This document shows positions 48,101-63,644 of a DNA stretch of 64,000 nt, in pieces. Below the pieces are notes generated by a model. The model made no database searches. It was not told the DNA's origin and saw only the letters and a program-made list of their open reading frames with translations. Within the stretch, counting starts at the first letter, position 1; each line of letters starts with the position of its first letter. Source of the stretch: a virus; the IMG/VR virus record IMGVR_UViG_3300028920_002946, positions 118,678 to 182,677 of that record. One strand, given 5' to 3'. The position numbers and the translations under genes are program-made.

Positions 48101-48115
48101 CGGAACGGAGGACAG

Positions 48116-49015
48116 ATGAACCCGACTCTCGTGGCGGACAGCATCAGGGACAGGTTGTCGAAATACGTCGCCGACCACAACCTCAAGGCTCTGGTGCTCG
48201 GGGTGTCCGGAGGCGTCGACAGCGCCGTCTGCGCCGCCCTCGCCAGGCCGGTGTGCGACCTCCACGGGATCGATCTCGTCGGGCGCAGCATCACCATCGC
48301 CTCGAACAAGCGGGGTGAGATAACACGCGCGCAGTTAGTCGGCGAGGCGTTCTGCACGGACTTCAAGGAGATCGATCTCGGGGACGAGTTCGCGTCGCTT
48401 GTGAAGATCCTCATCGAGGACGACGAGCCGGGCGACCTGACGCACGAGCGGAGGGTGCGCCGCGGCAACCTCAAGGCTCGCCTGCGCATGATCCGGCTCT
48501 ATGATCTGGCCAGCAAACACGGCGGCATGGTGCTCTCCACGGACAACCTCACGGAACTGCTCCTCGGCTTCTGGACCATCTGCGGCGATGTCGGGGACTA
48601 CGGCATGATACAGAAGCTGTGGAAGAGCGAGGTGTACGCCGTCGCGCGCTCTCTGTGCCGCGCATTCGAGGCGGAGAAGAGGTCGGACAGGAGCGAGGCC
48701 CTGCAGGCCTGCATAGCCGCCGTGCCCACGGACGGCCTGGGCGTGACCGACAGCGACCTCGACCAGTTCGGCGCCTCTGACTACGAGGAGGTCGAGCGCA
48801 TCCTCAAGACATGGCTCTGCCAGGACGAGGACGCGTTCGCCTGGGACTCCTGGCTGCGCTACGAGGGGCGCCCGGAGACGTTCAAGGAACTGCTGGAGGA
48901 GCGCGGGCGCATCGCCGACCACCCCGTGGTGTGTAGGCACGTCGCAACGGCCTACAAGCGCGACATACCCATCAGCATACCGCGGCACGACATAGACGGC
49001 CTTCCCGACGAGTAG
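48116..49015 (+). CDS. nadE: NH3-dependent NAD+ synthetase
   Basis: GVSGGVDSAV, GNLKARLRM, STDNLTE, GDVGD, KSEVY, PTDGL. Confidence 0.92.
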   Translation: MNPTLVADSIRDRLSKYVADHNLKALVLGVSGGVDSAVCAALARPVCDLHGIDLVGRSITIASNKRGEITRAQLVGEAFCTDFKEIDLGDEFASLVKILIEDDEPGDLTHERRVRRGNLKARLRMIRLYDLASKHGGMVLSTDNLTELLLGFWTICGDVGDYGMIQKLWKSEVYAVARSLCRAFEAEKRSDRSEALQACIAAVPTDGLGVTDSDLDQFGASDYEEVERILKTWLCQDEDAFAWDSWLRYEGRPETFKELLEERGRIADHPVVCRHVATAYKRDIPISIPRHDIDGLPDE

Positions 49016-49036
49016 CGCCAGGGGCCTTGGCGCCGC

Positions 49037-49049
49037 TAATCTATTAATA
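49037..49049 (+). promoter_or_regulatory. Putative late promoter motif TAATCTATTAATA
   Basis: Variant of the 34374 motif. Confidence 0.5.
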
Positions 49050-49058
49050 CCCGCTCAC

Positions 49059-49556
49059 ATGGGTATGATGGACGTCACCTCCATGCTCGACAGGGTAGCC
49101 GACAGGCTCGAGGCCGCCGGAAGGTTCCGCGAGGCCGAGGATGTCGATGTGCTGTCCAACACGATCGAGGCCGCGGGGTGGCGGCCGCTGCCGACGAGGA
49201 ACGTGGGCGGCGTCCCGCTCACCGAGCGGAAGATCGGCGACCCCAAGGGCATCAAGGAGAGGGGGGACAAACCCTCGAGATTCGATGTGGCGAAGGAGAT
49301 GGTGGACAGGCACATCGACGAGCGCAACGTCGCCATAGGGGCCGTCAAGGCGGGCATGGAGAGGTACGGGAGGATACTCGACGAAATCGCCAGGGAACAC
49401 CCGGATGTCGCCCCGAAGGCGCGCGAGTACAAGAAAAGGGTGAGCGACATGGCCGTTTCGGTCGAAAGGCAGCTGAAGGACTTCCTGCTCTATTTGATGC
49501 AGGTCAAGGGGGGCCCCGAGGTCACCGAATCCATGGTGGATTACCAAAGCAGTTGA
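49059..49556 (+). CDS. Hypothetical protein with conserved N-terminal helix motif
   Basis: LDRVADRLEAAGRFREAEDVD aligns with the N-terminus of 56363-56872. Confidence 0.6.
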   Translation: MGMMDVTSMLDRVADRLEAAGRFREAEDVDVLSNTIEAAGWRPLPTRNVGGVPLTERKIGDPKGIKERGDKPSRFDVAKEMVDRHIDERNVAIGAVKAGMERYGRILDEIAREHPDVAPKAREYKKRVSDMAVSVERQLKDFLLYLMQVKGGPEVTESMVDYQSS

Positions 49557-49581
49557 CACGGGGGCCTCTCCGTGCTATATT
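49553..49581 (+). promoter_or_regulatory. Promoter of tRNA cluster 1 (TTGACA-17-TATATT)
   Basis: Perfect -35, 17-nt spacer. Confidence 0.85.
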
Positions 49582-49600
49582 TGGTGCTTGGAGGAGAACC

Positions 49601-49660
49601 ATGACAAACGCCATGCTCAGGATAGTCGGAGAAGGTAGGGAGGGGAGAGGGCCGTCCTGA
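49601..49660 (+). CDS. Attenuator leader peptide 1 MTNAMLRIVGEGREGRGPS
   Basis: GGAGGAG RBS; codons AGG ATA GGA GAA GGT GAG GGG AGA match the downstream tRNAs. Confidence 0.85.
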   Translation: MTNAMLRIVGEGREGRGPS

Positions 49661-49684
49661 CGGGGCGTTTTGCGTTTGAACACC

Positions 49685-49720
49685 AACCCCCGTCAGGCCA
49701 GCCTGGCGGGGGTTTCTTTT
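49685..49720 (+). terminator. Intrinsic terminator (attenuator 1)
   Basis: AACCCCCGTCAGG/CCTGGCGGGGGTT plus U-tract; 5' arm alternatively pairs with 49656-49665. Confidence 0.85.
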
Positions 49721-49762
49721 TCTGTTCTTTGACAGTCTGCGGGTGCTAACAAGAACATCCAA

Positions 49763-49838
49763 GGCCCTATCGTCTAGTGGACCAGGACGGGTGGTTCTCA
49801 GCCATCAAACCGGGGTTCAATTCCCCGTAGGGCTACCA
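49763..49838 (+). tRNA. tRNA-Glu(CTC)
   Basis: Cloverleaf, loop TT-CTC-AG, CCA end. Confidence 0.92.
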
Positions 49839-49957
49839 TATAGCAAGCTTGTCGCGAGAGGACTCCGCGCGGGGTCTCCGCCCCCAAGGCCTGGCCCGGG
49901 CCGGCAGGGCGGGAGTAGCGGCGGCAGGGCGCTTTCACTACGGATCGGAGGAGGCCG

Positions 49958-50638
49958 ATGGATACTGCAATCGTGGAAATCAGGGCCGCCGAGGGCGGCG
50001 ACGACGCAAAGCTCCTCGTCGAGGAGCAACTGAAGATTTACGGCAAGGCGTGCATGCTGCATGGGCTATGACTGGCCATCCTGGAGATGCGGCCGGGATA
50101 CGTCTGCATCAAGGTGTCGGGACCCGGGGCCGGAAAACTCTTCGGGCCGGAGGGGGGCGGCCACAGGTGGCAGAGGGTGCCGCCGACGGAGAGGCGCGGC
50201 CGCGTCCAGACATCAACCGTCACGGTAGCGGTTCTTCGGGAGATCCCCGATCTGTCGCTCGACATCCCCGACGAGGACATTGAGATCACGACAGCCCGGG
50301 GATCCGGCAGGGGCGGCCAGCACCGCAACGTCACGGACTCCGCCGTGCAGATCAAACACGTCCCCACGGGCGTTATCGTGAGGTGCGAGTCGGAGCGCAG
50401 CCAGCACCGCAACATGGAACAGGCCATGGGTGTGCTGAAGCAGCGCATCCACCATCTGAGGGCCTCCTCGGTTTCAGAGGGGCGCAACAGCAGGCGCCGG
50501 CAGCAGGTGGGGAGCGGCATGCGCGGCGACAAGGTCAGGACCGTTCGCGTGAGGGACGGCAGGGTCGTCAACCATCTCAACGGCGGGCGCACGACGTACA
50601 AGCGGTATTCGCAGGGGCATATCGAGGATTTGTGGTAG
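49958..50638 (+). CDS. Class I peptide release factor-like protein (PPT, GGQ; no domain 1) with in-frame TGA at codon 38
   Basis: GGAGGAGG RBS; IVEIRAAEGGDDA...GL*LAIL...GGHRWQRVPPTE..GRVQTS..GGQHRN; TGA at 50069-50071. Confidence 0.8.
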
Positions 50639-50644
50639 CGACAC

Positions 50645-50720
50645 GGCCCGGTCGTCTAGTGGTTAGGACATTGGGTTTTCATCCCAAAGATCGCGAGTTC
50701 GATTCTCGTCCGGGCTACCA
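50645..50720 (+). tRNA. tRNA-Glu(TTC)
   Basis: Cloverleaf, loop TT-TTC-AT, CCA. Confidence 0.92.
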
Positions 50721-50756
50721 CCCACTCCGGGGGGCGCTATTGAAAAAGGTATTAAC

Positions 50757-50785
50757 TTTACAACAGCGCCCCTCGGGAGTATATT
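50757..50785 (+). promoter_or_regulatory. Internal promoter TTTACA-17-TATATT
   Basis: Immediately before tRNA(CAT). Confidence 0.6.
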
Positions 50786-50796
50786 GATGGGTTACA

Positions 50797-50873
50797 GGGC
50801 CCATAACTCAGTCGGTCAGAGTAGCGGACTCATAATCCGTCTGTCCAAGGTTCGAGCCCTTGTGGGCCCACCA
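50797..50873 (+). tRNA. tRNA(CAT), probably Ile2 (lysidine) rather than Met
   Basis: Ile2-like body GGGCCCA/CTCATAA; leader 1 contains the ATA codon. Confidence 0.85.
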
Positions 50874-50894
50874 CCCATCACAAGGAGCCCCCAA

Positions 50895-51170
50895 ATGATC
50901 ATCACGGCGAATTACGCCCCAGGGCAGCGTGTCTCGATAGTCGATGCCGAACTCACGGCGAGGGTCATGGGGGTGCTGTTCACCGACCGCGGCGTGTCGT
51001 ACATATGCCGATGGTATGACGGCCAGGAATTCCAAGAGAACGAGTTCGGTGACTCAGAGCTGTCCTCGACGGGAACACAGAACAGGGTGGCGGCGATATG
51101 CGGGGCGAGCGATGAAAAAGGCGACAAGGGAATTGCCGAAAAGGTTGCCGAGGCTAACCGCCGGAACTGA
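50895..51170 (+). CDS. Small hypothetical protein
   Basis: AGGAG RBS. Confidence 0.55.
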   Translation: MIITANYAPGQRVSIVDAELTARVMGVLFTDRGVSYICRWYDGQEFQENEFGDSELSSTGTQNRVAAICGASDEKGDKGIAEKVAEANRRN

Positions 51171-51600
51171 CATCAAGGCCTACCTCAAGGAGAAGCGCCG
51201 CTGTGAGTGCGCGCTTCTCAAGGCCATGCGCGAGGCCCACGCCGACCTCAAGGAACTCCTCAAAAAGATGGAGTCCCATTGGGAGTACGAGGATCTCGTC
51301 TACCGGTTCTACCACCACAGCTACAAGGCGCAGTTCGCCGCCGACCTCGGCAACGAGGTGTTCGACAGGCTCCTGTCTTTGGTGCCGTGGGGACACCGTG
51401 AATGCCCCGTGTTCGTACGCAGGCTGCGAGCGCGGTGCCGGCGGCCGTGGACCATGAGAAGGTCGAGGGCCGACATCGAACTGATGCTCCACGCGCGCTA
51501 CTTCCTGGAGATGGCCGTGAGGTACGGCAGGAGATACAAGCGGGGGCCGAATCCCATGCCGAGCGGGTATGCGGCCCTGATGTGCCTGTACGGATTATGA
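51112..51600 (+). CDS. Hypothetical protein
   Basis: ORF between tRNAs; HARYFLEMAVRYG. Confidence 0.55.
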   Translation: MKKATRELPKRLPRLTAGTDIKAYLKEKRRCECALLKAMREAHADLKELLKKMESHWEYEDLVYRFYHHSYKAQFAADLGNEVFDRLLSLVPWGHRECPVFVRRLRARCRRPWTMRRSRADIELMLHARYFLEMAVRYGRRYKRGPNPMPSGYAALMCLYGL

Positions 51601-51604
51601 TAAC

Positions 51605-51680
51605 GCCCCCGTAGCTCAGACGAATAGAGCCTCGGACTTCTAATCCGATTGCCCGGGTTTGAGTCCCGGCGGGGGTTCCA
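51605..51680 (+). tRNA. tRNA-Arg(TCT)
   Basis: Loop CT-TCT-AA, CCA; T-loop TTTGAGT variant. Confidence 0.88.
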
Positions 51681-51681
51681 C

Positions 51682-51756
51682 GCGGACGTAGCTCAATGGT
51701 AGAGCTCGACCCTTCCAAGGTCGCTGTTGTCGGTTCGAGTCCGATCGTCCGCTCCA
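51682..51756 (+). tRNA. tRNA-Gly(TCC)
   Basis: Loop CT-TCC-AA, U73, CCA. Confidence 0.92.
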
Positions 51757-51775
51757 ATTTGTCAAGCGGGATCAG

Positions 51776-52393
51776 ATGAGAAAATTTCGGGATCTATGGA
51801 AACCCTACATCAACCGGCAGAAGTGCTCGGAGTGCCAGCTTGTGACGGCGCTCAACGCGTACACCTATCTGCACGGCAGGCCATATTGCGAACAGGATTC
51901 GGACGAGTACGAGCGCCTTGTCGATATGGTGGGTGCCAGGCACGGGTCGGCGATACACATCGAGAGGGCGTGGAAGCTGTTGGGGATATGGCCCGTCGCC
52001 AGATATATCTCCTTCGATGATGTTCTGTCGCACAGCCCGAGCCACATTTACATGAAGAGGCTACCGCACGACAGGAACTCGAATTGGTCGAAGAGGGTGA
52101 CATGGGTCAAGCGCAACGGGACGATCCAGCGCCAGTCGAAGTCGAAGGCCGTGCTGCCGGCCGAGGTGACGATATGGCATCCGACGGTCGGCTACCACTC
52201 ATGTCTAATTATCGACCGCAACGAGGCCCTCGACATGGTGAGGGTGTCCAACTTCAAGCACGACACGCATTGGTCGGGCTGGATGTTCGTTTCGGAGCTC
52301 AAATGTCTCGAGAGCCGGGTCACGAGCGGGAAGGACGGCTTGAACAGCGATGGTCAGCAGTGGCTGTACAGGGTTTTCGGAACGCGGGAGTAA
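51776..52393 (+). CDS. Papain-fold (C39-like) peptidase candidate
   Basis: Q..SECQLVTALNA, YHSCL, VSNF; stop lies inside tRNA-Gly(CCC). Confidence 0.5.
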   Translation: MRKFRDLWKPYINRQKCSECQLVTALNAYTYLHGRPYCEQDSDEYERLVDMVGARHGSAIHIERAWKLLGIWPVARYISFDDVLSHSPSHIYMKRLPHDRNSNWSKRVTWVKRNGTIQRQSKSKAVLPAEVTIWHPTVGYHSCLIIDRNEALDMVRVSNFKHDTHWSGWMFVSELKCLESRVTSGKDGLNSDGQQWLYRVFGTRE

Positions 52394-52458
52394 CTCAGTG
52401 GCGGAGTCTCTGCTTCCCAAGCAGATGGTCGCGGGTTCGAACCCCGCCTCCCGCTCCA
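52384..52458 (+). tRNA. tRNA-Gly(CCC)
   Basis: Loop TT-CCC-AA, U73, CCA. Confidence 0.92.
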
Positions 52459-52473
52459 CCGTAAGGAAGTTTT

Positions 52474-52812
52474 ATGGCCTTAGACTACATCTTCGATGAG
52501 GATGCAGTTCTCAAGGAAGCGGGCGAGTGGCCCGAGATACATTGTAGTGCCGAGGTGTTTTGCAACAGGTGTCGGGTCAAGCACACTACACTCAAATTCA
52601 CCATGAGCCATCCAGATTACAAGCTACCCAAGGACGTTGTAGGTTGCTTCTATGGGCATGATATGCGCGCCTGTATGTGGTACAACGGAAGAATCGAAAA
52701 GGGGTGGTACAGGAGTAGCGACGTTATCTGCTGCCCCCAATGCGCCCCTAAAGAGAAACGTCATGAAAGATGGAGCTTGTTCTGGTGGAATTTCTGGGGT
52801 CGGTTTTTCTGA
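52474..52812 (+). CDS. Cys-rich hypothetical protein (lower GC)
   Basis: Flanked by duplicated CTCCCGCTCCA (52448, 52850). Confidence 0.55.
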   Translation: MALDYIFDEDAVLKEAGEWPEIHCSAEVFCNRCRVKHTTLKFTMSHPDYKLPKDVVGCFYGHDMRACMWYNGRIEKGWYRSSDVICCPQCAPKEKRHERWSLFWWNFWGRFF

Positions 52813-52865
52813 AGAGGAAGGCTTCACACGAAAGCTGAACAGTCCCCCTCTCCCGCTCCATATAT

Positions 52866-52941
52866 GCGGCAGTAGCTCATCCGGTAGAGCACCTGCTTGC
52901 CATGCAGGAGGTGGTCGGTTCGAGGCCGGCCTGCCGCACCA
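52866..52941 (+). tRNA. tRNA-Gly(GCC)
   Basis: Loop TT-GCC-AT, CCA. Confidence 0.9.
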
Positions 52942-52991
52942 GATTAATCCAGGACGCCCGACATATTATATTGGTGTATGGAAGCCGTAAA

Positions 52992-53106
52992 ACCCATGGG
53001 GCCGGAGGCAAGACAACCGACCGCGCGGCGGCGCCGACGGGGGACAACTTCCCCGGCCTCACGAAGCCGGGCGCCCTTGAGGTTAGAGTCGCCTTTCCCC
53101 ATGGGT
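52992..53106 (+). ncRNA. Unidentified structured RNA candidate (~115 nt)
   Basis: 10-bp terminal stem ACCCATGGGG/CCCCATGGGT, extended bulged helix, two apical hairpins; TTAATC-17-TATATT promoter at 52944-52972. Confidence 0.5.
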
Positions 53107-53120
53107 CCCGGCATATGTAA

Positions 53121-53197
53121 GCCCCTGTAGCTCAGCAGGATAGAGCACGAGTTTCCTAAACTCGGTGTCCCGCGTTCGAGTCGCGGCAGGGGTGCCA
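53121..53197 (+). tRNA. tRNA-Arg(CCT)
   Basis: Loop TT-CCT-AA, CCA. Confidence 0.92.
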
Positions 53198-53204
53198 AAT
53201 ACAG

Positions 53205-53783
53205 ATGGAGGATGTCATGAGGGCAACGCCCAAGAAGTCCGCATCGAAGGCCCCGCGCCCGAGGCGCAATAGCACCCGCAAGGCTGCCGCCAAGCCCAAG
53301 CCGAAAAAGAAGAATACCCCGCCCGACGAGGAGGGGTTCCTCCATGACCGCCTCCTGACGGTCGAATCGGCCCTCAAGAACTTGACCAAGCACGTCCGCC
53401 ACATCGAGAAGGCCCTCGATGACGCCGAGGGAAGGGGCCGGGAAAAAGCCGCCTGGGAGGGTTTCGGCGAGGGCATGAGCGCCCTGTCGGGCCTCATCAC
53501 CGACATCCGAACCATCGAGACCAACATCCGCGATATAGTGGCGCAGAATCCGACCGACCGCCTCGAAAACGCGCTCGGCCGCGCCGTCATGCTGTCGCTG
53601 CTGTGGTTCAGGGAGGGCGACCGCGAACCTCTGCAGATACACAGGATCCTCGTTGCGAAGGTGCTGGACATCTTGAAGGAGTGGGCCTCCAAGAAGGATG
53701 TCAAAACCTTCGAGGGCAGCATGGACCAAGCCCTCGCCAGGAGCGTGTACGACGCCCTCGGCGGCCATTCGATTCTCGACTGA
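53205..53783 (+). CDS. Hypothetical protein with basic N-terminal tail
   Basis: GGAGG RBS suggests start near 53217. Confidence 0.6.
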   Translation: MEDVMRATPKKSASKAPRPRRNSTRKAAAKPKPKKKNTPPDEEGFLHDRLLTVESALKNLTKHVRHIEKALDDAEGRGREKAAWEGFGEGMSALSGLITDIRTIETNIRDIVAQNPTDRLENALGRAVMLSLLWFREGDREPLQIHRILVAKVLDILKEWASKKDVKTFEGSMDQALARSVYDALGGHSILD

Positions 53784-53829
53784 CAACCAAACGAGGCGGC
53801 GCCGCCGCCGCAGAAGAAAGGCGTTCAAA

Positions 53830-54348
53830 ATGGCAATGACCGTACCGGACGACGTCGTGCCGATCATCACGCCGGCGATACGGAATCGTATCGCGCAGCT
53901 ACTCGAGGAGGCCTTCAAGCTCGCCTCGCTGGCAGACTGCTCGGATGTCCTCGAGGGAAGCATCGACAAGCTGACGGCGAAGTACTTCCAGGAGGGCGGG
54001 TCGCCGAGAGATCTCGATGACATGCCGGACAACTCCGACCCGCCGTCGATGTCGATCCTCACAACCGATCTTCCGTCGCCCCGGTCCCTCCTCGAGTCCG
54101 GCGGCCAATCCCGGGCGGTTGGCAGGAACGTCAAAAAGACCCGGGGGATCCCCGTCAGCGAGTTGGTTGAGGCCGACAACTATACGGCGCGCGGAAACCC
54201 CGTGTCCAGGTACAAGGGTGTGTCGTACAGCGGCATGGTGCGCAGGCCGTGGGTGGCCAGGTACAAGGGGAGGCGCCTGGGCTGCTACAAGGATGAGGTT
54301 TCCGCCGCGCAGGCATACGAGCGCGCGCGGTCGAGGAAAAGGGGTTGA
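53830..54348 (+). CDS. Protein with C-terminal AP2-like DNA-binding domain
   Basis: SRYKGVS...WVARY..RRLGCYKDEVSAAQAYE. Confidence 0.7.
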   Translation: MAMTVPDDVVPIITPAIRNRIAQLLEEAFKLASLADCSDVLEGSIDKLTAKYFQEGGSPRDLDDMPDNSDPPSMSILTTDLPSPRSLLESGGQSRAVGRNVKKTRGIPVSELVEADNYTARGNPVSRYKGVSYSGMVRRPWVARYKGRRLGCYKDEVSAAQAYERARSRKRG

Positions 54349-54373
54349 CATCGACCCGCAACGGCGGTATATT
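54345..54373 (+). promoter_or_regulatory. Promoter of tRNA cluster 2 (TTGACA-17-TATATT)
   Basis: Perfect -35, 17-nt spacer. Confidence 0.85.
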
Positions 54374-54427
54374 TGATGGATGTCTGCGCCGGGCGTGCCG
54401 CGGCGCAAACCAGCAGGGAGATTCGGA

Positions 54428-54496
54428 ATGTCTGTGACGGTCCTCAAACGAGTCGTTGTCAAGCGTCGGGTATCGACGCCAAGGGGGGCCGTGTAG
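54428..54496 (+). CDS. Attenuator leader peptide 2 MSVTVLKRVVVKRRVSTPRGAV
   Basis: GGGAG RBS; own translation; GTG GTC AAA CGA GTT AAG CGT CGG GTA match the downstream tRNAs. Confidence 0.85.
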   Translation: MSVTVLKRVVVKRRVSTPRGAV

Positions 54497-54527
54497 CCTA
54501 GTTTCCGTCTCACGCGATGAATACACG

Positions 54528-54561
54528 ACCCCCGGGCGAGCAGCCTGGGGGTTTTCTTTTT
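54528..54561 (+). terminator. Intrinsic terminator (attenuator 2)
   Basis: ACCCCCGGGC/GCCTGGGGGT plus TTTCTTTTT; 54522-54533 alternatively pairs with 54484-54495. Confidence 0.85.
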
Positions 54562-54637
54562 GGGTCCGTAGCTCAGTTGGTAGAGCTTGCGCCTTTTAAG
54601 CGTAAGGTCCCGGGTTCGAAACCCGGCGGGCCCACCA
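54562..54637 (+). tRNA. tRNA-Lys(TTT)
   Basis: Loop CT-TTT-AA, CCA. Confidence 0.92.
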
Positions 54638-54670
54638 GAGGGGACTTGCTATTCTATGCATATCCTTTTC

Positions 54671-54745
54671 GGGCGTGTAGCTCAGTCGGTGCAGAGCGCG
54701 TGTTTTACAGGCACGAGGTCGAGCGTTCGAGTCGCTCCGCGCCCA
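54671..54745 (+). tRNA. tRNA-Val(TAC), CCA not encoded
   Basis: Loop TT-TAC-AG. Confidence 0.85.
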
Positions 54746-54762
54746 CGGAAAGGGATGGTGCC

Positions 54763-55173
54763 ATGGGAAACGAGGAAATCGACGGCTTCAGCACGGAGAT
54801 GATAAGAGAACTCAGGAACGACTTTACATTCTTCATCGCCATGTCCATGCTGAAAATAATGGCGTCATCAACGCCGGACGCCAAGAAGTTCATTCGCGAG
54901 GTGGTCTGGAAATGGCGTGAAAAACAGGTGCAGGCACTGCACATAGTGGCGAGCGAGATGGACAAGAGGATGTTTGAGGACAAGGAGTTCTCCGAATTGT
55001 TCGGCCCCGTCATGAGGCAAGTGAACAAGACGCAGCGCGGGGTGATGATAGACTGCATACGCAAATTCTGCGACACCATGGAGGAAGCCCTCGTCGCGTC
55101 CATGTCGTCCGAAACGGACGGAGGCGACGGGGATCCCTTGAATGAAGAAGGCGAAGGCAACGTGCCCTCATAG
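54763..55173 (+). CDS. Hypothetical protein
   Basis: Stop lies inside tRNA-Lys(CTT). Confidence 0.55.
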   Translation: MGNEEIDGFSTEMIRELRNDFTFFIAMSMLKIMASSTPDAKKFIREVVWKWREKQVQALHIVASEMDKRMFEDKEFSELFGPVMRQVNKTQRGVMIDCIRKFCDTMEEALVASMSSETDGGDGDPLNEEGEGNVPS

Positions 55174-55239
55174 CTCAGCTGGTAGAGCAGCGGACTCTTA
55201 ATCCGCGAGTCCCAGGTTCGAACCCTGGTGGGGGTACCA
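55164..55239 (+). tRNA. tRNA-Lys(CTT)
   Basis: Loop CT-CTT-AA, CCA. Confidence 0.92.
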
Positions 55240-55256
55240 ATTTTTCAGGGCGGCAA

Positions 55257-55333
55257 GCCCCCGTAGCTCAGCGGATGAGAGCACCACGCTCCGGACGTGG
55301 GGGTCGCGCGTTCGAGTCGCGCCGGGGGTACCA
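55257..55333 (+). tRNA. tRNA-Arg(CCG)
   Basis: Loop CT-CCG-GA, CCA. Confidence 0.92.
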
Positions 55334-55347
55334 GCCAAGGGGTGGGC

Positions 55348-55854
55348 ATGGAAGGCGGATGGTTCGTCAAGCTTCTGCTTCTCACCGTCCAGAGGACGTG
55401 GGCCCTTCTGACGGGCGGGGTGGAGTCCCTGTTCTACCTGAAGCATTGGTCGAGGGGCCACAGGATCATCGCGAATGCGCGCGACCTGATAAGGGACACC
55501 GCCGAACTCGAGAGGTTCTACAAAGAGATGCACGTGGTCGAATACCGGCGGGATTGGCTTGACAGATGGTCGTTCCCGTGGGTCACGGCCGTCAAACGGA
55601 AGGGCGACTGCGAGGATTTCATGACGCTGTCGTACGCGATAATGAAGGAGAAGGCGAAGTGCGTGAGGACAGCCCTGTACGGTAGGAGGGACGGCAAGAG
55701 AGGCGGCCACGCCGTGCTGATCGTCCGCGAGTCCGGCGGGTGGGTCTTGATGAGCAACATGCACCGGTATATATGGTTCGACAATCCGCATGACGCGGCA
55801 CGGAAGCATTACGGAAAGGACACGACCAGGTACTACTTCCTGGACAGGACATAA
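55348..55854 (+). CDS. Transglutaminase-like cysteine peptidase
   Basis: KGDCEDF and GHAVL motifs. Confidence 0.7.
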   Translation: MEGGWFVKLLLLTVQRTWALLTGGVESLFYLKHWSRGHRIIANARDLIRDTAELERFYKEMHVVEYRRDWLDRWSFPWVTAVKRKGDCEDFMTLSYAIMKEKAKCVRTALYGRRDGKRGGHAVLIVRESGGWVLMSNMHRYIWFDNPHDAARKHYGKDTTRYYFLDRT

Positions 55855-55861
55855 AACATAC

Positions 55862-55938
55862 GCCCCCGTAGCTCAACTGGATAGAGCGTGCGGCTACGGA
55901 CCGCAAGGTTCCGGGTTCGACCCCTGGCGGGGGTGCCA
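55862..55938 (+). tRNA. tRNA-Arg(ACG)
   Basis: Loop CT-ACG-GA, CCA. Confidence 0.92.
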
Positions 55939-55944
55939 TCTTCA

Positions 55945-56021
55945 GGGCGGTTAGCTCAGCTGGTTAGAGTACGTGGTCGACATCCACGAGGTCGGGAGTT
56001 CGAATCTCCCACCGCCCACCA
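55945..56021 (+). tRNA. tRNA-Val(GAC) with C33
   Basis: Loop TC-GAC-AT, CCA. Confidence 0.85.
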
Positions 56022-56050
56022 TAGACATTCAGGCTGCTTGATGGTATATT
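56022..56050 (+). promoter_or_regulatory. Promoter TAGACA-17-TATATT
   Basis: Directly after tRNA-Val(GAC). Confidence 0.6.
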
Positions 56051-56058
56051 ACGGGCGT

Positions 56059-56298
56059 ATGAAACCTGAAACCGCCGACACACCGACGAAACCTGAAGCG
56101 GTTAACTACGTGGTCGTGTCATGTTGCGCCTGCAACAAGGTCATGTCGGACGACCGACAATGGTTCGACGGCACCGACCTATTGGCCGTCGTGCCCAAGC
56201 ACTTGGTGAGCCATTCCATCTGCCCTGAGTGCTTCGCCGCGCACTACCCTGAAATGCACGCCCGGTTCTCCAAACAGGGTAAAATACAGGCCGGCTGA
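56059..56298 (+). CDS. Small zinc-binding protein
   Basis: CCACNK...W...SHSICPEC. Confidence 0.6.
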   Translation: MKPETADTPTKPEAVNYVVVSCCACNKVMSDDRQWFDGTDLLAVVPKHLVSHSICPECFAAHYPEMHARFSKQGKIQAG

Positions 56299-56362
56299 CT
56301 CCCTAATAATGCTTTAATCGCCACACCTGCTGTACGGACATCAGCAATCAAGGGGATGCCAC

Positions 56363-56872
56363 ATGCAGGCCAGGACTGCCGCTGCCGTTGTGCGCGCAAT
56401 GGACTCGATAGCCTCATCACTCGAGAAAAAGGGACTCCTCAGGGAAGCCGAGGAACTCGATGCGGCGACCAACGCCGTCCAGCGACACGCGACCGACCCA
56501 AGCCAGAACTCGTTCACTTACGACACGTTGCAGCAATATCCCGACTTGATGAAGGCGATCCCTGGTGAGATTCTGTCGGTCATGAAGGCAATGAAAGATT
56601 CAAGCCTATGGTGGCGCGATGACGGTGCCTCCGTTACATTCGACCAATACACATTGGATTCCTCACAGATCAAGACGCTTGCAGCCGCCGGATCCCTCGT
56701 CAAGATATTTCCGGAAGAACACGATAAGTACGGGGATGGGTATCCCGTGCACGACGGATACACAGCGGAATTCAATGTCAAAAGAACGCCACAATTTGAA
56801 CAAGCAGGCACCGCCGCGCTCCAAGATCTCCTCAGGAAAAAGGAATACAAGGAGTTCGACCCGGCCATATAG
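56363..56872 (+). CDS. Hypothetical protein with conserved N-terminal helix motif
   Basis: MDSIASSLEKKGLLREAEELD shared with 49059-49556. Confidence 0.6.
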   Translation: MQARTAAAVVRAMDSIASSLEKKGLLREAEELDAATNAVQRHATDPSQNSFTYDTLQQYPDLMKAIPGEILSVMKAMKDSSLWWRDDGASVTFDQYTLDSSQIKTLAAAGSLVKIFPEEHDKYGDGYPVHDGYTAEFNVKRTPQFEQAGTAALQDLLRKKEYKEFDPAI

Positions 56873-56881
56873 GTGACAGCA

Positions 56882-57229
56882 ATGGACGATGCCAATAAAG
56901 TAGTGCAAGCATACCTCGCCGGGAAGTCAAAGGAAGCGATGGACTTCTCGTCCATCGCGCCGCTGCTCAAGTCCGAGAAGAAAATGGACGACCGCGAGAT
57001 AGCGCGCGCCCTACGGCTCGCCATAGCCGCGGAACACGACGCGGCCCACCTGTACGAACTCATCGCGGACAGTTGCGAGAACAAGGTTGTCCGCGAACTG
57101 CTTCAGGACATCGCCAACGAGGAAAAGGTCCATGTCGGGGAGCTCCAATGGCTCCTCTCCCACATCGACAGGGACAACGGAAGGCTTCTCCAAGAGGGCG
57201 TGGAGGAGGCGCAGGAAATAGCAGAGTAG
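56882..57229 (+). CDS. Ferritin-like/rubrerythrin-type di-iron protein
   Basis: AIAAEHDAAHLYE and DIANEEKVHVGE ExxH motifs. Confidence 0.8.
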   Translation: MDDANKVVQAYLAGKSKEAMDFSSIAPLLKSEKKMDDREIARALRLAIAAEHDAAHLYELIADSCENKVVRELLQDIANEEKVHVGELQWLLSHIDRDNGRLLQEGVEEAQEIAE

Positions 57230-57288
57230 CACATCCCACATCCAGCATCGACACGATCAATAACGACAACGGCAAACAGGGGAGAGCA

Positions 57289-57543
57289 ATGATGAGGGTC
57301 GTCATTGCCTTGGTTGCGCTCGTGTTCTTTTCATGCGCGCCGAGGTTCACGGTCTACCTCCACAGGGAGGACAAGATGAACACGGACGGCATCGTCGTCC
57401 TGTCCATCGACACGCTTGAGGGGGTGCACAAAGGCAAGAGGGTGGTGTACGTCATTAGAAGGGATCTCGGCAGCATCGGGAGCGCGGTCTACGGCGCGAG
57501 GCAGAGAAAAATACAGCCAGAGGTTGACAGTCTCTCGAGATGA
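57289..57543 (+). CDS. Small lipoprotein candidate
   Basis: Signal peptide ending FFSC. Confidence 0.5.
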   Translation: MMRVVIALVALVFFSCAPRFTVYLHREDKMNTDGIVVLSIDTLEGVHKGKRVVYVIRRDLGSIGSAVYGARQRKIQPEVDSLSR

Positions 57544-57552
57544 GGGTATATT
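57524..57552 (+). promoter_or_regulatory. Promoter of tRNA cluster 3 (TTGACA-17-TATATT)
   Basis: Perfect -35, 17-nt spacer. Confidence 0.85.
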
Positions 57553-57574
57553 TGGTTGCACAAGGAGTGATGTA

Positions 57575-57655
57575 ATGGTCTACACGGCGAACAACCCAAA
57601 CCCCGTCCAGCAACCGCGGAACCGCGTTCCGTCGGGGTTGGTGGTATTGCCGTAA
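57575..57655 (+). CDS. Attenuator leader peptide 3 MVYTANNPNPVQQPRNRVPSGLVVLP
   Basis: AAGGAG RBS; AAC CCA CCC CAG CAA CCG match the downstream tRNAs. Confidence 0.85.
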   Translation: MVYTANNPNPVQQPRNRVPSGLVVLP

Positions 57656-57675
57656 GATCAGGCACCAAAAATACC

Positions 57676-57715
57676 AAAGCCCCGGCGGACGAAAGTTCTC
57701 CGGGGCTTTTTCGTT
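57676..57715 (+). terminator. Intrinsic terminator (attenuator 3)
   Basis: AAAGCCCCGG/CCGGGGCTTT with GAAA apex plus U-tract; 57670-57684 alternatively pairs with 57633-57648. Confidence 0.85.
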
Positions 57716-57735
57716 TGGTTCACCTAGGAAAAGAG

Positions 57736-58140
57736 ATGAACACGAAGGATATAGGCGAACGATCCGAGGCACAAGTATTGGCCACCCTCTTAAAAGGGGG
57801 TAAGACAGTACTGAAACCATTCGGAGATAACCAAAGGTACGACCTCGTGGTCGACGAGGATGGAGAATTCCTGAGAGTTCAGTGTAAGACAGGAGTATTG
57901 AAAAAGGGATCAATATACTTCCCGACTTGCAGTAGTTACGGACACCGAGGAAGAGGGAAGAAAGGCTATAAGAGAGAAGCAGACATCTTTGCCGTCTATT
58001 GTCCTGCTACTGACAAGGTCTACATTATCCCTGTCGAAGAAGCACCCGAAAGGCAGTGTTACCTACGGGTAGAGAAAACGAAGAACTCTCAAGACAAAAG
58101 AATTCGATGGGCCGAGAAATACGAATACACGGGTGCGTAG
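57736..58140 (+). CDS. PD-(D/E)XK endonuclease, I-Ssp6803I-like homing endonuclease family
   Basis: GERSE..PFGDNQRYDLV..RVQCKT..DIFAVY; lower GC; stop inside tRNA-Asn. Confidence 0.75.
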   Translation: MNTKDIGERSEAQVLATLLKGGKTVLKPFGDNQRYDLVVDEDGEFLRVQCKTGVLKKGSIYFPTCSSYGHRGRGKKGYKREADIFAVYCPATDKVYIIPVEEAPERQCYLRVEKTKNSQDKRIRWAEKYEYTGA

Positions 58141-58205
58141 CTCAATGGTAGAGCAAGTGGCTGTTAACCACTGGGTTGGGGGTTCAAGTCCCTCCGTGCC
58201 CGCCA
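58131..58205 (+). tRNA. tRNA-Asn(GTT)
   Basis: Loop CT-GTT-AA, G73, CCA. Confidence 0.92.
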
Positions 58206-58230
58206 AATTCAGACCGGTCGCAAATGGCTC

Positions 58231-58704
58231 ATGAATGGCTCAAACGGCTCATGTTATGAGAGATTGACCGGTGAGAAGTTCGTGACGACCGCAATCTACC
58301 CGAACAGGGAGAGGGACAGGCGCGAACTGGAGCGGCTGTCCGACCTCAAGGAGGGCGGCGACGCCTCGATGCTCTTTCACAGCAGGAACGGTACGCTTCT
58401 GGCCCGGGGGTACGCCCGGGTGGTGTACGGAGACCACGGCCCCTACGTCGAGATGTTCAGGGATCAGGTGGAGTGGGCGGCGTGGGAACTCGAACGGTCG
58501 GACATCGGATACTACAACAAGTGGTGGACGAAGGACGGGACCCGCGTCATGCTGTACGAACAGAGGAAGACGGTTGCCGACCTGCCCAACCCGCCCGCCG
58601 GCAAGCGGTCGCACAGGGGGAACAGGAAGGAAGGATACGCTGACTACCGGATAGGAAGACTGTATTTGGATCCTTACGAGGTGGTCATGAAACACGGAGT
58701 GTAG
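58231..58704 (+). CDS. Hypothetical protein
   Basis: VYGDHGPYVE; stop inside tRNA-Pro(TGG). Confidence 0.55.
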   Translation: MNGSNGSCYERLTGEKFVTTAIYPNRERDRRELERLSDLKEGGDASMLFHSRNGTLLARGYARVVYGDHGPYVEMFRDQVEWAAWELERSDIGYYNKWWTKDGTRVMLYEQRKTVADLPNPPAGKRSHRGNRKEGYADYRIGRLYLDPYEVVMKHGV

Positions 58705-58772
58705 CGAAGCCTGGTTATCGCACAAGCTTTGGGAGCTTGGGATCGTCCGTTCAAATCGGACCGCTCCGACCA
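58695..58772 (+). tRNA. tRNA-Pro(TGG)
   Basis: C1, loop TT-TGG-GA, A73, CCA. Confidence 0.9.
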
Positions 58773-58779
58773 GATTTGA

Positions 58780-58855
58780 TGGGGCGTGGCTCAGTTGGTA
58801 GAGCGGCTGACTCTGGATCAGCAGGTCGGAGGTTCGAGCCCTCCCGTCCCAGCCA
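58780..58855 (+). tRNA. tRNA-Gln(CTG)
   Basis: U1-A72, loop CT-CTG-GA, G73, CCA. Confidence 0.92.
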
Positions 58856-58934
58856 GTTTCACCCCCCGGGGTGCGGCCTGTAGCGGGCCGCGCGGCCACA
58901 CGGCGGAAATCAGGCTCCGCCACGGGAGACCAAT

Positions 58935-59009
58935 TGGGGTGTAGCTCAGTGGTAGAGCGGCGGCCTTTGGAGCCGCGCGTCGGGCGTTCGAACCGCCCCA
59001 CCCCAGCCA
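58935..59009 (+). tRNA. tRNA-Gln(TTG)
   Basis: U1-A72, loop CT-TTG-GA, G73, CCA. Confidence 0.92.
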
Positions 59010-59020
59010 TGGAGGAAGTA

Positions 59021-59278
59021 GTGTCAAAGAAAATAGGCAAGGACTCAACGATTGAAGAGGCGATAGCCTATGCCTTTGATCTTGACGGTAGGATGAAGTG
59101 CACGGACTTCAACGGTGTCGCCCACATCATCCATCTGGACGGGTCGACGTTCACGATCAAAAACGCGATCATCAAGAGGTACGGGAGGTTCGTGGTTGTC
59201 TATGCGGAGCACCAGCACCCGATGGTGTGGTTCAAAGACGACCTGTACCGATTCGGATTGACGAAGTACGGAGTGTAG
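59021..59278 (+). CDS. Small hypothetical protein
   Basis: GGAGG RBS + GTG; stop inside tRNA-Pro(CGG). Confidence 0.55.
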   Translation: MSKKIGKDSTIEEAIAYAFDLDGRMKCTDFNGVAHIIHLDGSTFTIKNAIIKRYGRFVVVYAEHQHPMVWFKDDLYRFGLTKYGV

Positions 59279-59345
59279 CTCAGTCTGGTGGAGCGCTGCG
59301 TTCGGGACGCAGAGGTCGCCGGTTCAAATCCGGCCACTCCGACCA
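59269..59345 (+). tRNA. tRNA-Pro(CGG)
   Basis: Loop TT-CGG-GA, CCA. Confidence 0.92.
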
Positions 59346-59373
59346 ATCTTTCACCTGTTTACGATCTTGCGAA

Positions 59374-59450
59374 CGGGAAAGCCCAGTCTGGTCAGAGCAC
59401 TACGTTTAAGGCGTAGGGGGTCGTCAGTTCGAATCTGGCCTACCCGACCA
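59374..59450 (+). pseudogene. Degenerate tRNA, Pro-like body with TAA at the anticodon position
   Basis: Good anticodon and T arms and ACCA end; broken acceptor stem and positions 8-9. Confidence 0.55.
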
Positions 59451-59490
59451 ACTCATGTTGTCCTTTGACAACACTTTCTGTTCAAACAAC

Positions 59491-59519
59491 TTGTAATAAG
59501 TTCCGTTAGGGACTATATT
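59491..59519 (+). promoter_or_regulatory. Promoter TTGTAA-17-TATATT heading the low-GC islet
   Basis: Motif match. Confidence 0.55.
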
Positions 59520-59581
59520 AAGTGGGTAATGATGCGATGCTTATGCACTTCATTCTGTACAAATACTCAAAGGAGAGGGTC

Positions 59582-60145
59582 ATGCATTACCCAACTGTTT
59601 TTGCTGTGTTCTTTCTGCTGCTGGTTGCATGCAATAACAACGATGTGGTGCTCCCGGAAAACTGCACTGAACCAAACGTTGTCGCAGCCTTAGGAACAGG
59701 GTGTAATTCAAGTGCTTCGGAGCTCACGCTTGATTTGGTAGATTCAGCAGAATACTGTGACGCTGAACGTTTGAGATGGACATACGACCAAAACACGTGC
59801 GTGTTACGCTTAGTACACAGCCGCAGCATTCTCAACTGTGCCACCAAGCTTGATGTACGTGCGCGAATTAACAGAGACACAATATTCGTCACCGAATACG
59901 ATGTCCGTTTAGATGATTTACCAAATATTGTAGCCGCTTGTTGTCTGTGCCCGTTTGATACCTACGTAGAAGTGGCAGATGCCCCGTCAGAGGAAATAAT
60001 AGTCGTCCTCTACAGACAACTTTGTATTGGTGCTGGGGAATATAGGGATACCCTCGTGACGCGCACACCACTCGACATTGACACCTCCCCGTCACCATTC
60101 TGTAATGGCTATGTTATACTACAATTAAGGGAAGCGGATGGGTAG
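59582..60145 (+). CDS. Cys-rich lipoprotein (low GC)
   Basis: Lipobox LLVAC. Confidence 0.65.
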   Translation: MHYPTVFAVFFLLLVACNNNDVVLPENCTEPNVVAALGTGCNSSASELTLDLVDSAEYCDAERLRWTYDQNTCVLRLVHSRSILNCATKLDVRARINRDTIFVTEYDVRLDDLPNIVAACCLCPFDTYVEVADAPSEEIIVVLYRQLCIGAGEYRDTLVTRTPLDIDTSPSPFCNGYVILQLREADG

Positions 60146-60232
60146 CAGTTGGCAGATATGATCAAGGAATCTCAAAGCGTAAGGCAAATGGTAACGGAAA
60201 ATCATCGAGATTCTTGAAGAAAGAAGATAAAG

Positions 60233-60667
60233 ATGCCTTGTGCGACACATCTACAGATGGTAGATGAAAACTCGTGTTCATACACGAGCACAATTTATGA
60301 CCTCAAGCACTACATAGAAACTGTCGGTTTCAAGGTGGACCTTCATGCAGCCATTGGGTGTAGGTCTAAACCGTTTGACAGTACTTCTAAAAAGTATGTC
60401 AGTGGAAGGACCTATTACGATCACGATGAGCCATTCCAACGTTTGGTACAAATAGACGAGCCCTGCGTTATATGCGCTGTTATGACGATTGCGCATGAAG
60501 GGGGACACGCACTCCATTATGTGCAAAGCAACAAAGAAAACCAACCTCCTTGTGAGGAAAGAGAACGTAGAGCGTACAGATTGGGGTGGAAGATACTTAA
60601 GGCACTCTCAGTAAGTTTCATTACGAGAGAAATGTGGAAGGAACACCACGAATTGTTAGTCGGGTAG
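60233..60667 (+). CDS. HExxH metallopeptidase-like protein (ImmA/IrrE-like)
   Basis: TIAHEGGH...EERRA; low GC. Confidence 0.55.
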   Translation: MPCATHLQMVDENSCSYTSTIYDLKHYIETVGFKVDLHAAIGCRSKPFDSTSKKYVSGRTYYDHDEPFQRLVQIDEPCVICAVMTIAHEGGHALHYVQSNKENQPPCEERERRAYRLGWKILKALSVSFITREMWKEHHELLVG

Positions 60668-60740
60668 TAGCTTAGCTTGGTAGAGCATTTGACTTTGGGA
60701 GCCAGAGATTTCGTCCGTTCAAATCCGGCCACTCCGACCA
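60661..60740 (+). pseudogene. Degenerate/chimeric tRNA-Pro(TGG)
   Basis: TTTGGGA loop; mismatched stems; last 25 nt identical to the tRNA-Pro(CGG) 3' end. Confidence 0.55.
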
Positions 60741-60745
60741 AATTT

Positions 60746-60822
60746 CGGGGCGTAGCGCAGCCTGGTAGCGCACGTGAATGGGGTTCACGTGGTCGCTGGT
60801 TCAAATCCAGTCGCCCCGACCA
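60746..60822 (+). tRNA. tRNA-Pro(GGG)
   Basis: Loop AT-GGG-GT, A73, CCA. Confidence 0.9.
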
Positions 60823-60840
60823 ATTCACCGGAGGCATGAG

Positions 60841-61107
60841 ATGGTCTGGTACGTCTACATGCTCAGGTGCTCCAAGGGCGCCCTCTACACGGGCATCACG
60901 ACCAACGTCGAGGTGCGCCTCCAGACCCACAACTCGGGGCGCGGCTCGAAGGCCCTCAAAGCCCTCGGCCTGCCCGCGCGTCTCGCCTATTTGGAGAAAC
61001 GACCTTCCAAGTCGGACGCACTCAAACGCGAGGCGGCCTTGAAAAAGTTACCGAAATCGGAAAAGGAGACCCTCTCCGCCAATTTCCGAAGGTCCGCTTC
61101 GTTTTGA
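60841..61107 (+). CDS. GIY-YIG nuclease (YhbQ/UPF0213-like)
   Basis: WYVYMLRC..LYTGITT..RL..HN.G.G..ALKREAALKKL. Confidence 0.9.
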   Translation: MVWYVYMLRCSKGALYTGITTNVEVRLQTHNSGRGSKALKALGLPARLAYLEKRPSKSDALKREAALKKLPKSEKETLSANFRRSASF

Positions 61108-61108
61108 A

Positions 61109-61121
61109 TAATCTCTGCATA
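61109..61121 (+). promoter_or_regulatory. Putative late promoter motif TAATCTCTGCATA
   Basis: Variant of the 34374 motif. Confidence 0.4.
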
Positions 61122-61152
61122 CACAGCCCCCAATGTAAGTTATCGCGAGGGG

Positions 61153-61503
61153 TTGGATAAGGTGAAATACTACATGCCTGTCTTGTTCTTCGTCGCCGTG
61201 GGGTTGTGGCTGTCCTGCGGCTCGTCCATCAAGAGTAGCGTAAACATACAGAAATCAATCATCCCCGCCGCCGAGGCGGCGATGTACACCCCGAGCCGGG
61301 AACCCGAACCCCGAATCGAACCCTCCGTGTTTACCGACACCGGCGGCATCTCAATCAACCGCAGGGAGAAACGCGCACCCCATGCCGGACTCCCGCCGAA
61401 ACCCCTGATCGAGTGCCGCAGCATCCTCGACACCGTCTCCGTCCTCAACAGGGCCTCCTATGTCCTGATAAAGGAGACGAAAGAGGAACTTTCGGAGCCG
61501 TAA
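61153..61503 (+). CDS. Lipoprotein candidate
   Basis: Hydrophobic signal ending WLSC. Confidence 0.5.
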   Translation: MDKVKYYMPVLFFVAVGLWLSCGSSIKSSVNIQKSIIPAAEAAMYTPSREPEPRIEPSVFTDTGGISINRREKRAPHAGLPPKPLIECRSILDTVSVLNRASYVLIKETKEELSEP

Positions 61504-61563
61504 GTTTACGGCATCGGTTCTCCCAAAGTATATTATGATGTCACCCCTCCAAGGGATTCCGTC

Positions 61564-62187
61564 ATGGACTTGAAGGAAGCCTCCCTGGTTATGTGCCACC
61601 TTCTCATGCACGAGAAGGATGTCAAGGACGCACGCGAGGCCGCCGAAAAAGACTCGCCGGACAGCACCTTGGATCCCGACACCGAGGCCGAATTCGAGGA
61701 GAGGCTGCGCGAGGCCACAGCGGGCATCGCCGAATTCGGAAACCGCCTCGCCGCCATCCCCGCCTTTTTCGATGTCATGGAGTCGTGGCTCGTCACGGTC
61801 GTCGGCAGGCAGGGCGTGTCCGAGGAAACCATGAACGAGGCCGTGGAAACCAACGATCGGGACACCATGATAGAGCGCACCGGCGCCTTGGCCGCGTCCG
61901 TCCGCGACTATCTCAGATCCCAGGGATTCATCATACGAGACATGGGGGCTGGCGAGGACGGGTGGGACATGTGCGTCAGATGCGCCGAGAAGAAGTCCCG
62001 CACCCTCTGCTTCGACCTTCACCAACGGTTCGCGGACGCCATCAGGTTGAAGCTGATGCACGTTTCAAGGAGATTCGGCGGCCACTATCTGCCGGGCATC
62101 TACACATGGCGCGACGCCCAAAGGCTCCTCAAGGGGTTCGGCGACGGCCGCAACGGTCAGGAGGAAGCGGATGATCGAGGATCGTGA
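61564..62187 (+). CDS. Hypothetical protein
   Basis: TATATT promoter at 61529. Confidence 0.6.
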   Translation: MDLKEASLVMCHLLMHEKDVKDAREAAEKDSPDSTLDPDTEAEFEERLREATAGIAEFGNRLAAIPAFFDVMESWLVTVVGRQGVSEETMNEAVETNDRDTMIERTGALAASVRDYLRSQGFIIRDMGAGEDGWDMCVRCAEKKSRTLCFDLHQRFADAIRLKLMHVSRRFGGHYLPGIYTWRDAQRLLKGFGDGRNGQEEADDRGS

Positions 62188-63004: not shown

Positions 63005-63107
63005 CGTAAGTGTCCGGGTTCACGTAAGTACGGGTGTTCAAGCCCCCCTGATTTCCTTGGTGCGTTGCCGTGCGTCAGCCGTTCAACAACAAACCAAGGA
63101 GACAAGG

Positions 63108-63636: not shown

Positions 63637-63644
63637 CACGGTGT

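Follow-up and report, generated by a model that had tools for sequence, protein, structure and literature searches.

Within a 64,000-nucleotide stretch of viral DNA (the window), 22 transfer RNA (tRNA) genes lie between positions 49763 and 63720, grouped by amino acid, and the question raised by this locus is what controls the block of six that encodes tRNA-Lys, tRNA-Val and tRNA-Arg species. The window is the end of IMG/VR record IMGVR_UViG_3300028920_002946 (182,677 bases, 62% GC, 39% complete). Three promoters of the form TTGACA-17-TATATT (49553, 54345, and 57524) are present, one at the head of each tRNA block, and we refer to the elements that follow them as units 1, 2, and 3. A preliminary description of the window had proposed that unit 2 is a codon-matched attenuator over the Lys/Val/Arg block, and our analysis supports this proposal through the codon match, the geometry of the switch, nine orthologues, and a relative that carries five such units. 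We put at roughly 0.88 the probability that unit 2 is a ribosome-controlled transcription attenuator whose output is the very tRNAs that it tests.

Architecture of the Lys/Val/Arg unit

Judged by its sequence, unit 2 appears to carry every feature by which an attenuator can be recognized at this level: a promoter, a leader open reading frame (ORF) with a ribosome-binding site, control codons, a terminator, an antiterminator, and a protector. The parts of the unit and of the block behind it are listed below.

54345..54373, + strand: sigma-70-type promoter, TTGACA-17-TATATT; predicted +1 near 54380; consensus identical in all 9 orthologues
54382..54411, + strand: 5' hairpin, an insertion of about 29 nt present only in this genome
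54415..54420, + strand: Shine-Dalgarno-like AGGGAG, 7 nt upstream of the leader ATG
54428..54496, + strand: leader ORF of 22 codons plus TAG; frame kept in 9 orthologues
54437..54445, + strand: segment 1, the protector arm; 9/9 pairing with 54484-54492 in the absence of a ribosome (P=0.98)
54446-54472, + strand: leader control codons 7-15, KRVVVKRRV
54463..54479, + strand: small hairpin, candidate pause element
54484..54495, + strand: segment 2, the antiterminator 5' arm, covering the last leader codons and part of the stop codon
54522..54537, + strand: segment 3, the antiterminator 3' arm; 54527-54537 shared with the terminator 5' arm
54527..54561, + strand: intrinsic terminator; 11-bp stem 54527-54553 (-23.0 kcal/mol), U-tract to 54561
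54562..54637, + strand: tRNA-Lys(UUU), abutting the U-tract
54671..54746, + strand: tRNA-Val(UAC), the sole one of the six without an encoded CCA
54763..55173, + strand: conserved all-helical passenger ORF of 136 amino acids, whose stop codon forms positions 8-10 of tRNA-Lys(CUU)
55164..55239, + strand: tRNA-Lys(CUU)
55257..55333, + strand: tRNA-Arg(CCG)
55348..55854, + strand: transglutaminase-like (Peptidase_C93) passenger ORF, with orthologues in L036 and L065
55862..55938, + strand: tRNA-Arg(ACG)
55945..56021, + strand: tRNA-Val(GAC)

The position of the leader and its codons 3-15 agreed with those given in the preliminary description, and the tRNA search returned the same six anticodons in the same order. 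The further statement that tRNA-Lys(UUU) directly follows the U-tract was likewise correct. No further promoter consensus of this type was found between 54374 and 56021, and there is no room for a promoter between the terminator and tRNA-Lys(UUU). Because this gene starts at the next base after the terminator and the block holds no promoter consensus, the six tRNAs are expected to be made by read-through only.

The 136-amino-acid three-helix passenger, which lies between tRNA-Val(UAC) and tRNA-Lys(CUU), was found in six relatives (36-52% identity) and matched no known family or fold. The predicted +1 (54380) is itself an ATG in the leader frame, and this frame passes through the 29-nt hairpin insertion missing from the orthologues; a leaderless, extended leader of 38 codons from ATG 54380 is a possible reading of the sequence. 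An overlapping 41-codon ORF (ATG 54376) was also considered as the leader; it has neither a ribosome-binding site nor a codon match, its counterpart in the orthologues begins upstream of the likely +1, and it was ruled out.

Leader codons match the downstream tRNAs

Among the 21 post-start codons of leader 2, 12 are readable by the six tRNAs of its own block, where genome codon usage predicts 3.5 (P=3e-5); two match block 1 and one matches block 3. Within codons 3-15, 11 of 13 are decodable by the block, the maximum in 49,106 gene windows being 10, and codons 7-15 form an unbroken run of nine decodable codons (the longest run in 50,952 ordinary gene codons was 8). An exact Watson-Crick codon for each of the six anticodons occurs inside codons 5-15, including the rare codons AAA (14% of Lys), CGT (4% of Arg), and GTA (2% of Val). 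Given the peptide, the probability of obtaining all six exact codons was 0.002 if codons are drawn at genome frequencies and 0.09 if they are drawn uniformly. Comparison of the three leaders of the window with its three blocks gave diagonal matches of 10, 12, and 11, with leader 1 matching its own block at 10/18 codons (P=1e-3) and leader 3 at 11/25 (P=3e-5). These matches were found against a background of about 62% GC and of several short ORFs near each promoter.

The preliminary description had also contrasted the Arg CGN codons of leader 2 with the AGR codons of leader 1, as a reflection of the Arg isoacceptors that follow each of them. This contrast holds within the control zones; leader 2 has, however, a fourth Arg codon, AGG, at codon 19, which lies outside the control zone and is missing from the orthologues. 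Taken alone, the Arg contrast reaches only about p=0.015 (0.44^3 x 0.56^3).

Mutually exclusive helices and the switch point

Beyond its stem energy, the terminator is distinguished by a z-score of -4.7. The antiterminator described earlier, 54484-54495 with 54522-54533, was recovered with 11/12 pairs and one C-A mismatch (-19.5 kcal/mol), and its complementarity exceeds that of 99.8% of random genome segments (P~0.002). Bases 54477-54480 can in addition pair with 54535-54538, which extends the antiterminator over the rest of the arm, and the shared positions make the antiterminator and the terminator mutually exclusive. To these helices we add a 9-bp protector, 54437-54445/54484-54492, which was absent from the preliminary description; in computed folding of the ribosome-free transcript, it persists until segment 3 emerges. 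It corresponds to the third helix of classical three-hairpin attenuators (PMC11857589). The hairpin at 54463-54479, previously described as pause-like, is present at these coordinates, although it is weak (-8.6 kcal/mol) and its sequence is not conserved across the orthologues.

The effect of ribosome position was computed by imposing a ribosome footprint on the transcript without the terminator 3' arm. In this folding model, the leader keeps the terminator 5' arm paired as long as the A-site is at or before codon 15 and releases it from codon 16-17, so that the computed switch point coincides exactly with the end of the control codons. For units 1 and 3 as well, the switch point falls just after the last control codons.

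Orthologous units in related phages

Syntenic phages were reached through NadE homologues, and in two of them, L036 and L037, unit 2 was found before tRNA-Lys(UUU) by NadE synteny and not by motif. A pattern scan of metagenomes added L045/L047, L046, L054/L057, and L056/L065. Nine leaders, amounting to about six distinct versions, were compared. All of them have the promoter, an ORF of 21-22 codons with the core KRVVxKRR, a terminator, and tRNA-Lys(UUU) at 117-123 nt from the core. Indels in the orthologous leader ORFs are all in frame, with one TAA stop and one GTG start. The codons AAA, AAG, GTA, GTC, and CGG and an ACG-readable codon are kept in all nine leaders. At third positions that the search pattern leaves free, CGG is found in 9/9; GTA stands at core codon four in 8/8 orthologues, and this genome has GTT there and GTA five codons later, at codon 15. 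Folding placed the switch point just after KRR in all nine, and segment 2 of the orthologues also pairs with the start of the leader, via different sequences. At one position of the terminator stem, this genome has an A-U pair and the orthologues have G-C.

The full promoter-to-terminator DNA pattern gave no match in viral contigs. The core pattern gave one match in 185,579 cellular genomes, which had no tRNA nearby and was taken as chance, as were 14 of 22 metagenome matches and 15 of 16 viral matches. In 18 tRNA-rich loci of unrelated phages, selected by NadE or by a release-factor-like gene, no leader/terminator unit was detected with a filter that requires a clean U-tract and a GGAG-type site, can miss weak units, and may therefore under-count.

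Between L054 and L057, which are 97.5% identical, the anticodon stem of tRNA-Lys(UUU) differs at 10/10 bases with its pairing intact, and the differences extend into the T-arm. This pattern in the sequences suggests an exchange of part of the tRNA.

Sister units and a relative with five units

The two other units of the window are organized as follows.

49553..49722, + strand: sister unit 1, with promoter, leader 49601-49660 (Arg-AGR, Ile-ATA, Gly, Glu), and terminator 49685-49714
57524..57715, + strand: sister unit 3, with promoter, leader 57575-57655 (Asn, Pro, Gln), and terminator at about 57677-57708

Unit 1 heads the Glu/CAT/Arg/Gly block (49763-53197), and unit 3 heads the Asn/Pro/Gln block (58131-60822). 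An internal promoter-like site lies at 50757-50785, before tRNA(CAT) in block 1, and is also found in L036 and L041; block 1 is therefore not fully gated by its attenuator, unlike block 2. Block 3 contains two degenerate tRNA-like genes, at 59374-59447 and 60661-60740 (Rfam scores of 28.5 and 22.5 bits, under the cut-off).

The relative G001 (466,729 bases, 98% complete), whose unit-2 leader is the same as that of L036, carries 47 tRNA genes and five units within the 60 kb examined. The first three correspond to units 1-3 of the window; the fourth stands before the tRNAs for Phe, Asp, Met, Ile, and Ser(GCU), and the fifth has a 40-codon leader over 20 tRNAs. Leader 5 contains exact codons for 20/20 of the downstream anticodons, a coverage reached by 0 of 200,000 synonymous shuffles. 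When the five leaders were matched with the five blocks, the diagonal scored 73, the best of 120 permutations (next best 56). Isoacceptors are split between units: Arg AGR codons belong to unit 1 and CGN to unit 2, Ser AGC to unit 4 and TCN to unit 5, and Val(CAC) lies in block 5, matching a GTG codon in leader 5. Of 20 similar promoters examined in G001, only the five that head tRNA blocks are followed by a leader and a terminator-type hairpin. G001 encodes a sigma-70 factor and no RNA polymerase beta subunit, a gene content that fits transcription by the host polymerase.

Elsewhere in G001 (G001:C1 near 173126, minus strand, L103), a promoter is followed by a 12-codon ORF ending in VKRRVV, which resembles the unit-2 core; it has no terminator and lies upstream of an HNH-like ORF. 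In the more distant L038, a Thr/Ala/Glu/Gly-rich leader and a terminator hairpin (4248-4440) precede a Glu/Thr/Ala/Gly tRNA block. This unit adjoins Acb1, with RNA ligase and PNKP genes downstream.

Proposed mechanism

Under the attenuation model, the polymerase, which would be that of the host, starts at the unit-2 promoter, and a ribosome would translate the leader behind it. When the Lys, Val, and Arg(CGN) tRNAs are plentiful, the ribosome would move beyond codon 16 and cover segment 2, whereupon the terminator would fold and transcription would stop at the U-tract. A shortage of even one of the six tRNA species would stall the ribosome within codons 7-15, where it covers segment 1 and leaves segment 2 free; the antiterminator could then fold before the terminator 3' arm exists. 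The polymerase would thus read into the six tRNA genes and the two passenger ORFs. In the absence of a ribosome, the protector would hold segment 2 and the unit would be off. Once fresh tRNA ended the stall, the unit would shut again, so that the circuit would act as negative feedback on a shortage of tRNA. The signal would be the loss of functional tRNA, through host anticodon nucleases or through decay after host shut-off; ribosomes are known to stall at the cognate codons once a tRNA has been cleaved (PMC13096801). With each isoacceptor given its own codon, and with the Arg, Val, and Ser isoacceptors divided between units, the design fits the loss of single tRNAs better than amino-acid starvation.

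As the five units of G001 cover nearly the whole code, the system is better described as a general sensor of tRNA supply than as a Lys-specific one. We give an even chance to the broader proposal that, in a clade of jumbo phages, the whole tRNA pool is monitored at isoacceptor resolution: about five leader genes would between them test nearly every codon, each switching on only the block that repairs its own stall. If this holds, these phages would meet tRNA-destroying immunity with a programmed sense-and-replace response, which would demonstrate directly that their tRNAs replace lost tRNA.

Weighing the alternatives

Several points weigh against the attenuator. The case is built from sequence and computed folding, and transcription-translation coupling is assumed. 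The search pattern that recovered seven of the nine orthologues itself prescribes part of the core, the antiterminator core (84.5% paired) is nearly invariant and has no two-sided covariation, and the U-tracts of the orthologues are interrupted and weaker. Similar-looking leaders of Streptomyces ilvB and leuA failed mutational tests of classical attenuation (PMC1262725). Furthermore, the full-length RNA always folds the terminator at equilibrium, whatever the ribosome position (-23.0 versus -19.5 kcal/mol); the switch must therefore be kinetic, set by the order of folding, as in known attenuators. This equilibrium result, the Streptomyces precedent, and the interrupted U-tracts would also suit a different arrangement, in which the ORF and hairpins are real, the peptide is incidental, and control is exerted, for example, by a leaky terminator that fixes the tRNA dose, by a signal for processing, or by a switch to which a protein binds. 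We regard this as improbable, since it leaves unexplained both the 20/20 anticodon coverage with the block-by-block match and the fact that the switch boundary sits where the control codons stop, in all three units and all nine orthologues. Chance is far less probable still: short ORFs are common at 62% GC, and one could lie beside an ordinary terminator, but the P value of leader 2 alone stands against this, the arrangement recurs in both sister units, in the nine orthologues, and five times over in a relative, and no such unit was seen in the 18 unrelated tRNA-rich loci with the filter described above. The conservation and permutation tests already refute it.

The remaining alternatives accept the attenuator and differ in the signal. 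Amino-acid starvation (uncharged tRNA) or a general slowing of ribosomes could be what is sensed, with extra tRNA as a stress response. Leader-peptide attenuators normally sense aminoacylation (PMC11857589), any stall up to codon 15 opens the switch in the model, and there are five Val codons within codons 5-15. More tRNA would not, however, cure a shortage of amino acids, and the isoacceptor split of leaders and blocks (Arg, Val, Ser) is needless for starvation sensing, so we consider this signal unlikely. A narrower form of the attenuator model, in which selection shaped it specifically as a counter-defence device that signals attack by host tRNA nucleases (PrrC or the AriB protein of PARIS, for example), would refine our reading and is held tentatively, a little short of an even bet. 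Both nucleases target tRNA-Lys, and phage tRNA-Lys helps to rescue infection (PMC11555353, PMC12409363). The tRNA-Lys(UUU) of this genome is without the AriB site at positions 36-41, the difference at all ten positions of the tRNA-Lys anticodon stem between L054 and L057 can be read in the same direction, and one codon per isoacceptor would suit a sensor for the hard stall that follows destruction of a single tRNA. The neighbourhood (PncB, NadE, RlaP, and, in a relative, Acb1 and RNA ligases beside a tRNA block) is also in keeping with it. Against it, anticodon stems are variable in all tRNA types here, which is unsurprising for a region with few identity elements. The emphasis that the preliminary description placed on PrrC and PARIS thus remains a plausible lead, although nothing singles out Lys among units that span nearly all tRNAs. 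The odds on a defence-specific trigger are about even, as ordinary tRNA decay after host shut-off would serve the attenuator equally well.

Relation to known regulatory systems

Unit 2 resembles the attenuators of amino-acid operons (E. coli trpL, hisL, thrL, and ilvL; Corynebacterium ilvBNC, PMC11857589) in its promoter, short leader ORF, and control codons, and in its mutually exclusive protector, antiterminator, and terminator with U-tract, switched by the position of the ribosome. It differs from them in being borne by a phage, in having tRNA genes rather than enzymes as output, in carrying about one exact codon per downstream anticodon instead of tandem codons for one amino acid, and in belonging to a set of units that share out the genetic code. 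Attenuators of synthetase genes (E. coli pheST; Streptomyces trpS and leuS, PMC1262725) also join a leader-peptide switch to charged-tRNA supply and the translation apparatus; they control the synthetase for one amino acid, whereas here the sensed molecule is the product.

In T-box riboswitches, too, the status of a tRNA sets the choice between terminator and antiterminator. There, a specifier loop binds uncharged tRNA without translation, whereas the leader here is an ORF under coding constraint. A T-box was rejected as an explanation, as an Rfam scan of 48000-64000 down to E=1 gave tRNAs and otherwise weak chance matches. A T-box reportedly controls tRNA-Asn genes in Clostridium acetobutylicum.

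The trn array of Anabaena, under TrcR, likewise holds silent tRNA genes that are turned on by translational stress (PMC8421152, PMC10272220). TrcR is, by contrast, a protein repressor that acts at initiation, globally and without codon specificity, and the word attenuation does not occur in PMC8421152. The tRNAs of phages T5 and SP15, which act against retron-Eco7, PrrC, and PARIS, resemble this system in that a phage tRNA-Lys(UUU) is without the AriB cleavage sequence (PMC11555353, PMC12409363), and the purpose, replacement of host tRNA, is likely to be shared. In the portion consulted of the first report, their tRNA is expressed from a strong promoter and a sensor is not described (PMC11555353), whereas here the supply appears to come on demand. 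A literature search, with most subscription journals outside its coverage, uncovered no description of tRNA genes controlled by a leader peptide, nor of such an arrangement in a phage. Unit 2 would thus combine a known mechanism, leader-peptide attenuation, with a new kind of output, tRNA genes.

The purpose of phage tRNA genes has long been debated between codon compensation and the replacement of destroyed tRNA (PMC10264068). Release of tRNAs only upon stalls at the codons of their own block would point to on-demand replacement, and the question becomes testable with a 220-nt reporter. The attenuation model would also carry trp-style control beyond enzymes, to tRNA genes, and beyond bacteria, to viruses; it would explain why these tRNA arrays are sorted by amino acid, and offer compact biosensors for tRNA-cleaving toxins and defence systems.

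Genomic context

The source was identified as a phage from the IMG/VR record and from tail-fibre matches; collagen-like tail fibres are encoded in the record. Pfam profiles for T4-type capsid, portal, sheath, and terminase gave no match, and cultured phages gave matches in the tRNAs only, with RecA having no close cultured relative. As the NadE of the record is also found on a contig of 463,769 bases, the full genome of the source phage is probably about 464 kb. Genes of the window include RecA, NrdD with an intein, PncB, NadE, RlaP, and a release-factor-like gene. RlaP, PncB, and NadE lie at 44797-49015, directly upstream of the tRNA array, and are syntenic in relatives; this neighbourhood possibly combines RNA repair with the rescue of nicotinamide adenine dinucleotide. 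A suppressor-type tRNA gene follows block 3 (63645-63720), with the anticodon UUA here and CUA in a relative (G001:C1 near 195937). The release-factor-like gene (49958-50638) is split by an in-frame stop after codon 37, and the same division into 37 codons and 183-188 codons was also called in L036:12736-13416, L037:12965-13645, and L041:12736-13416, a shared arrangement of the sequence that suggests regulated read-through.

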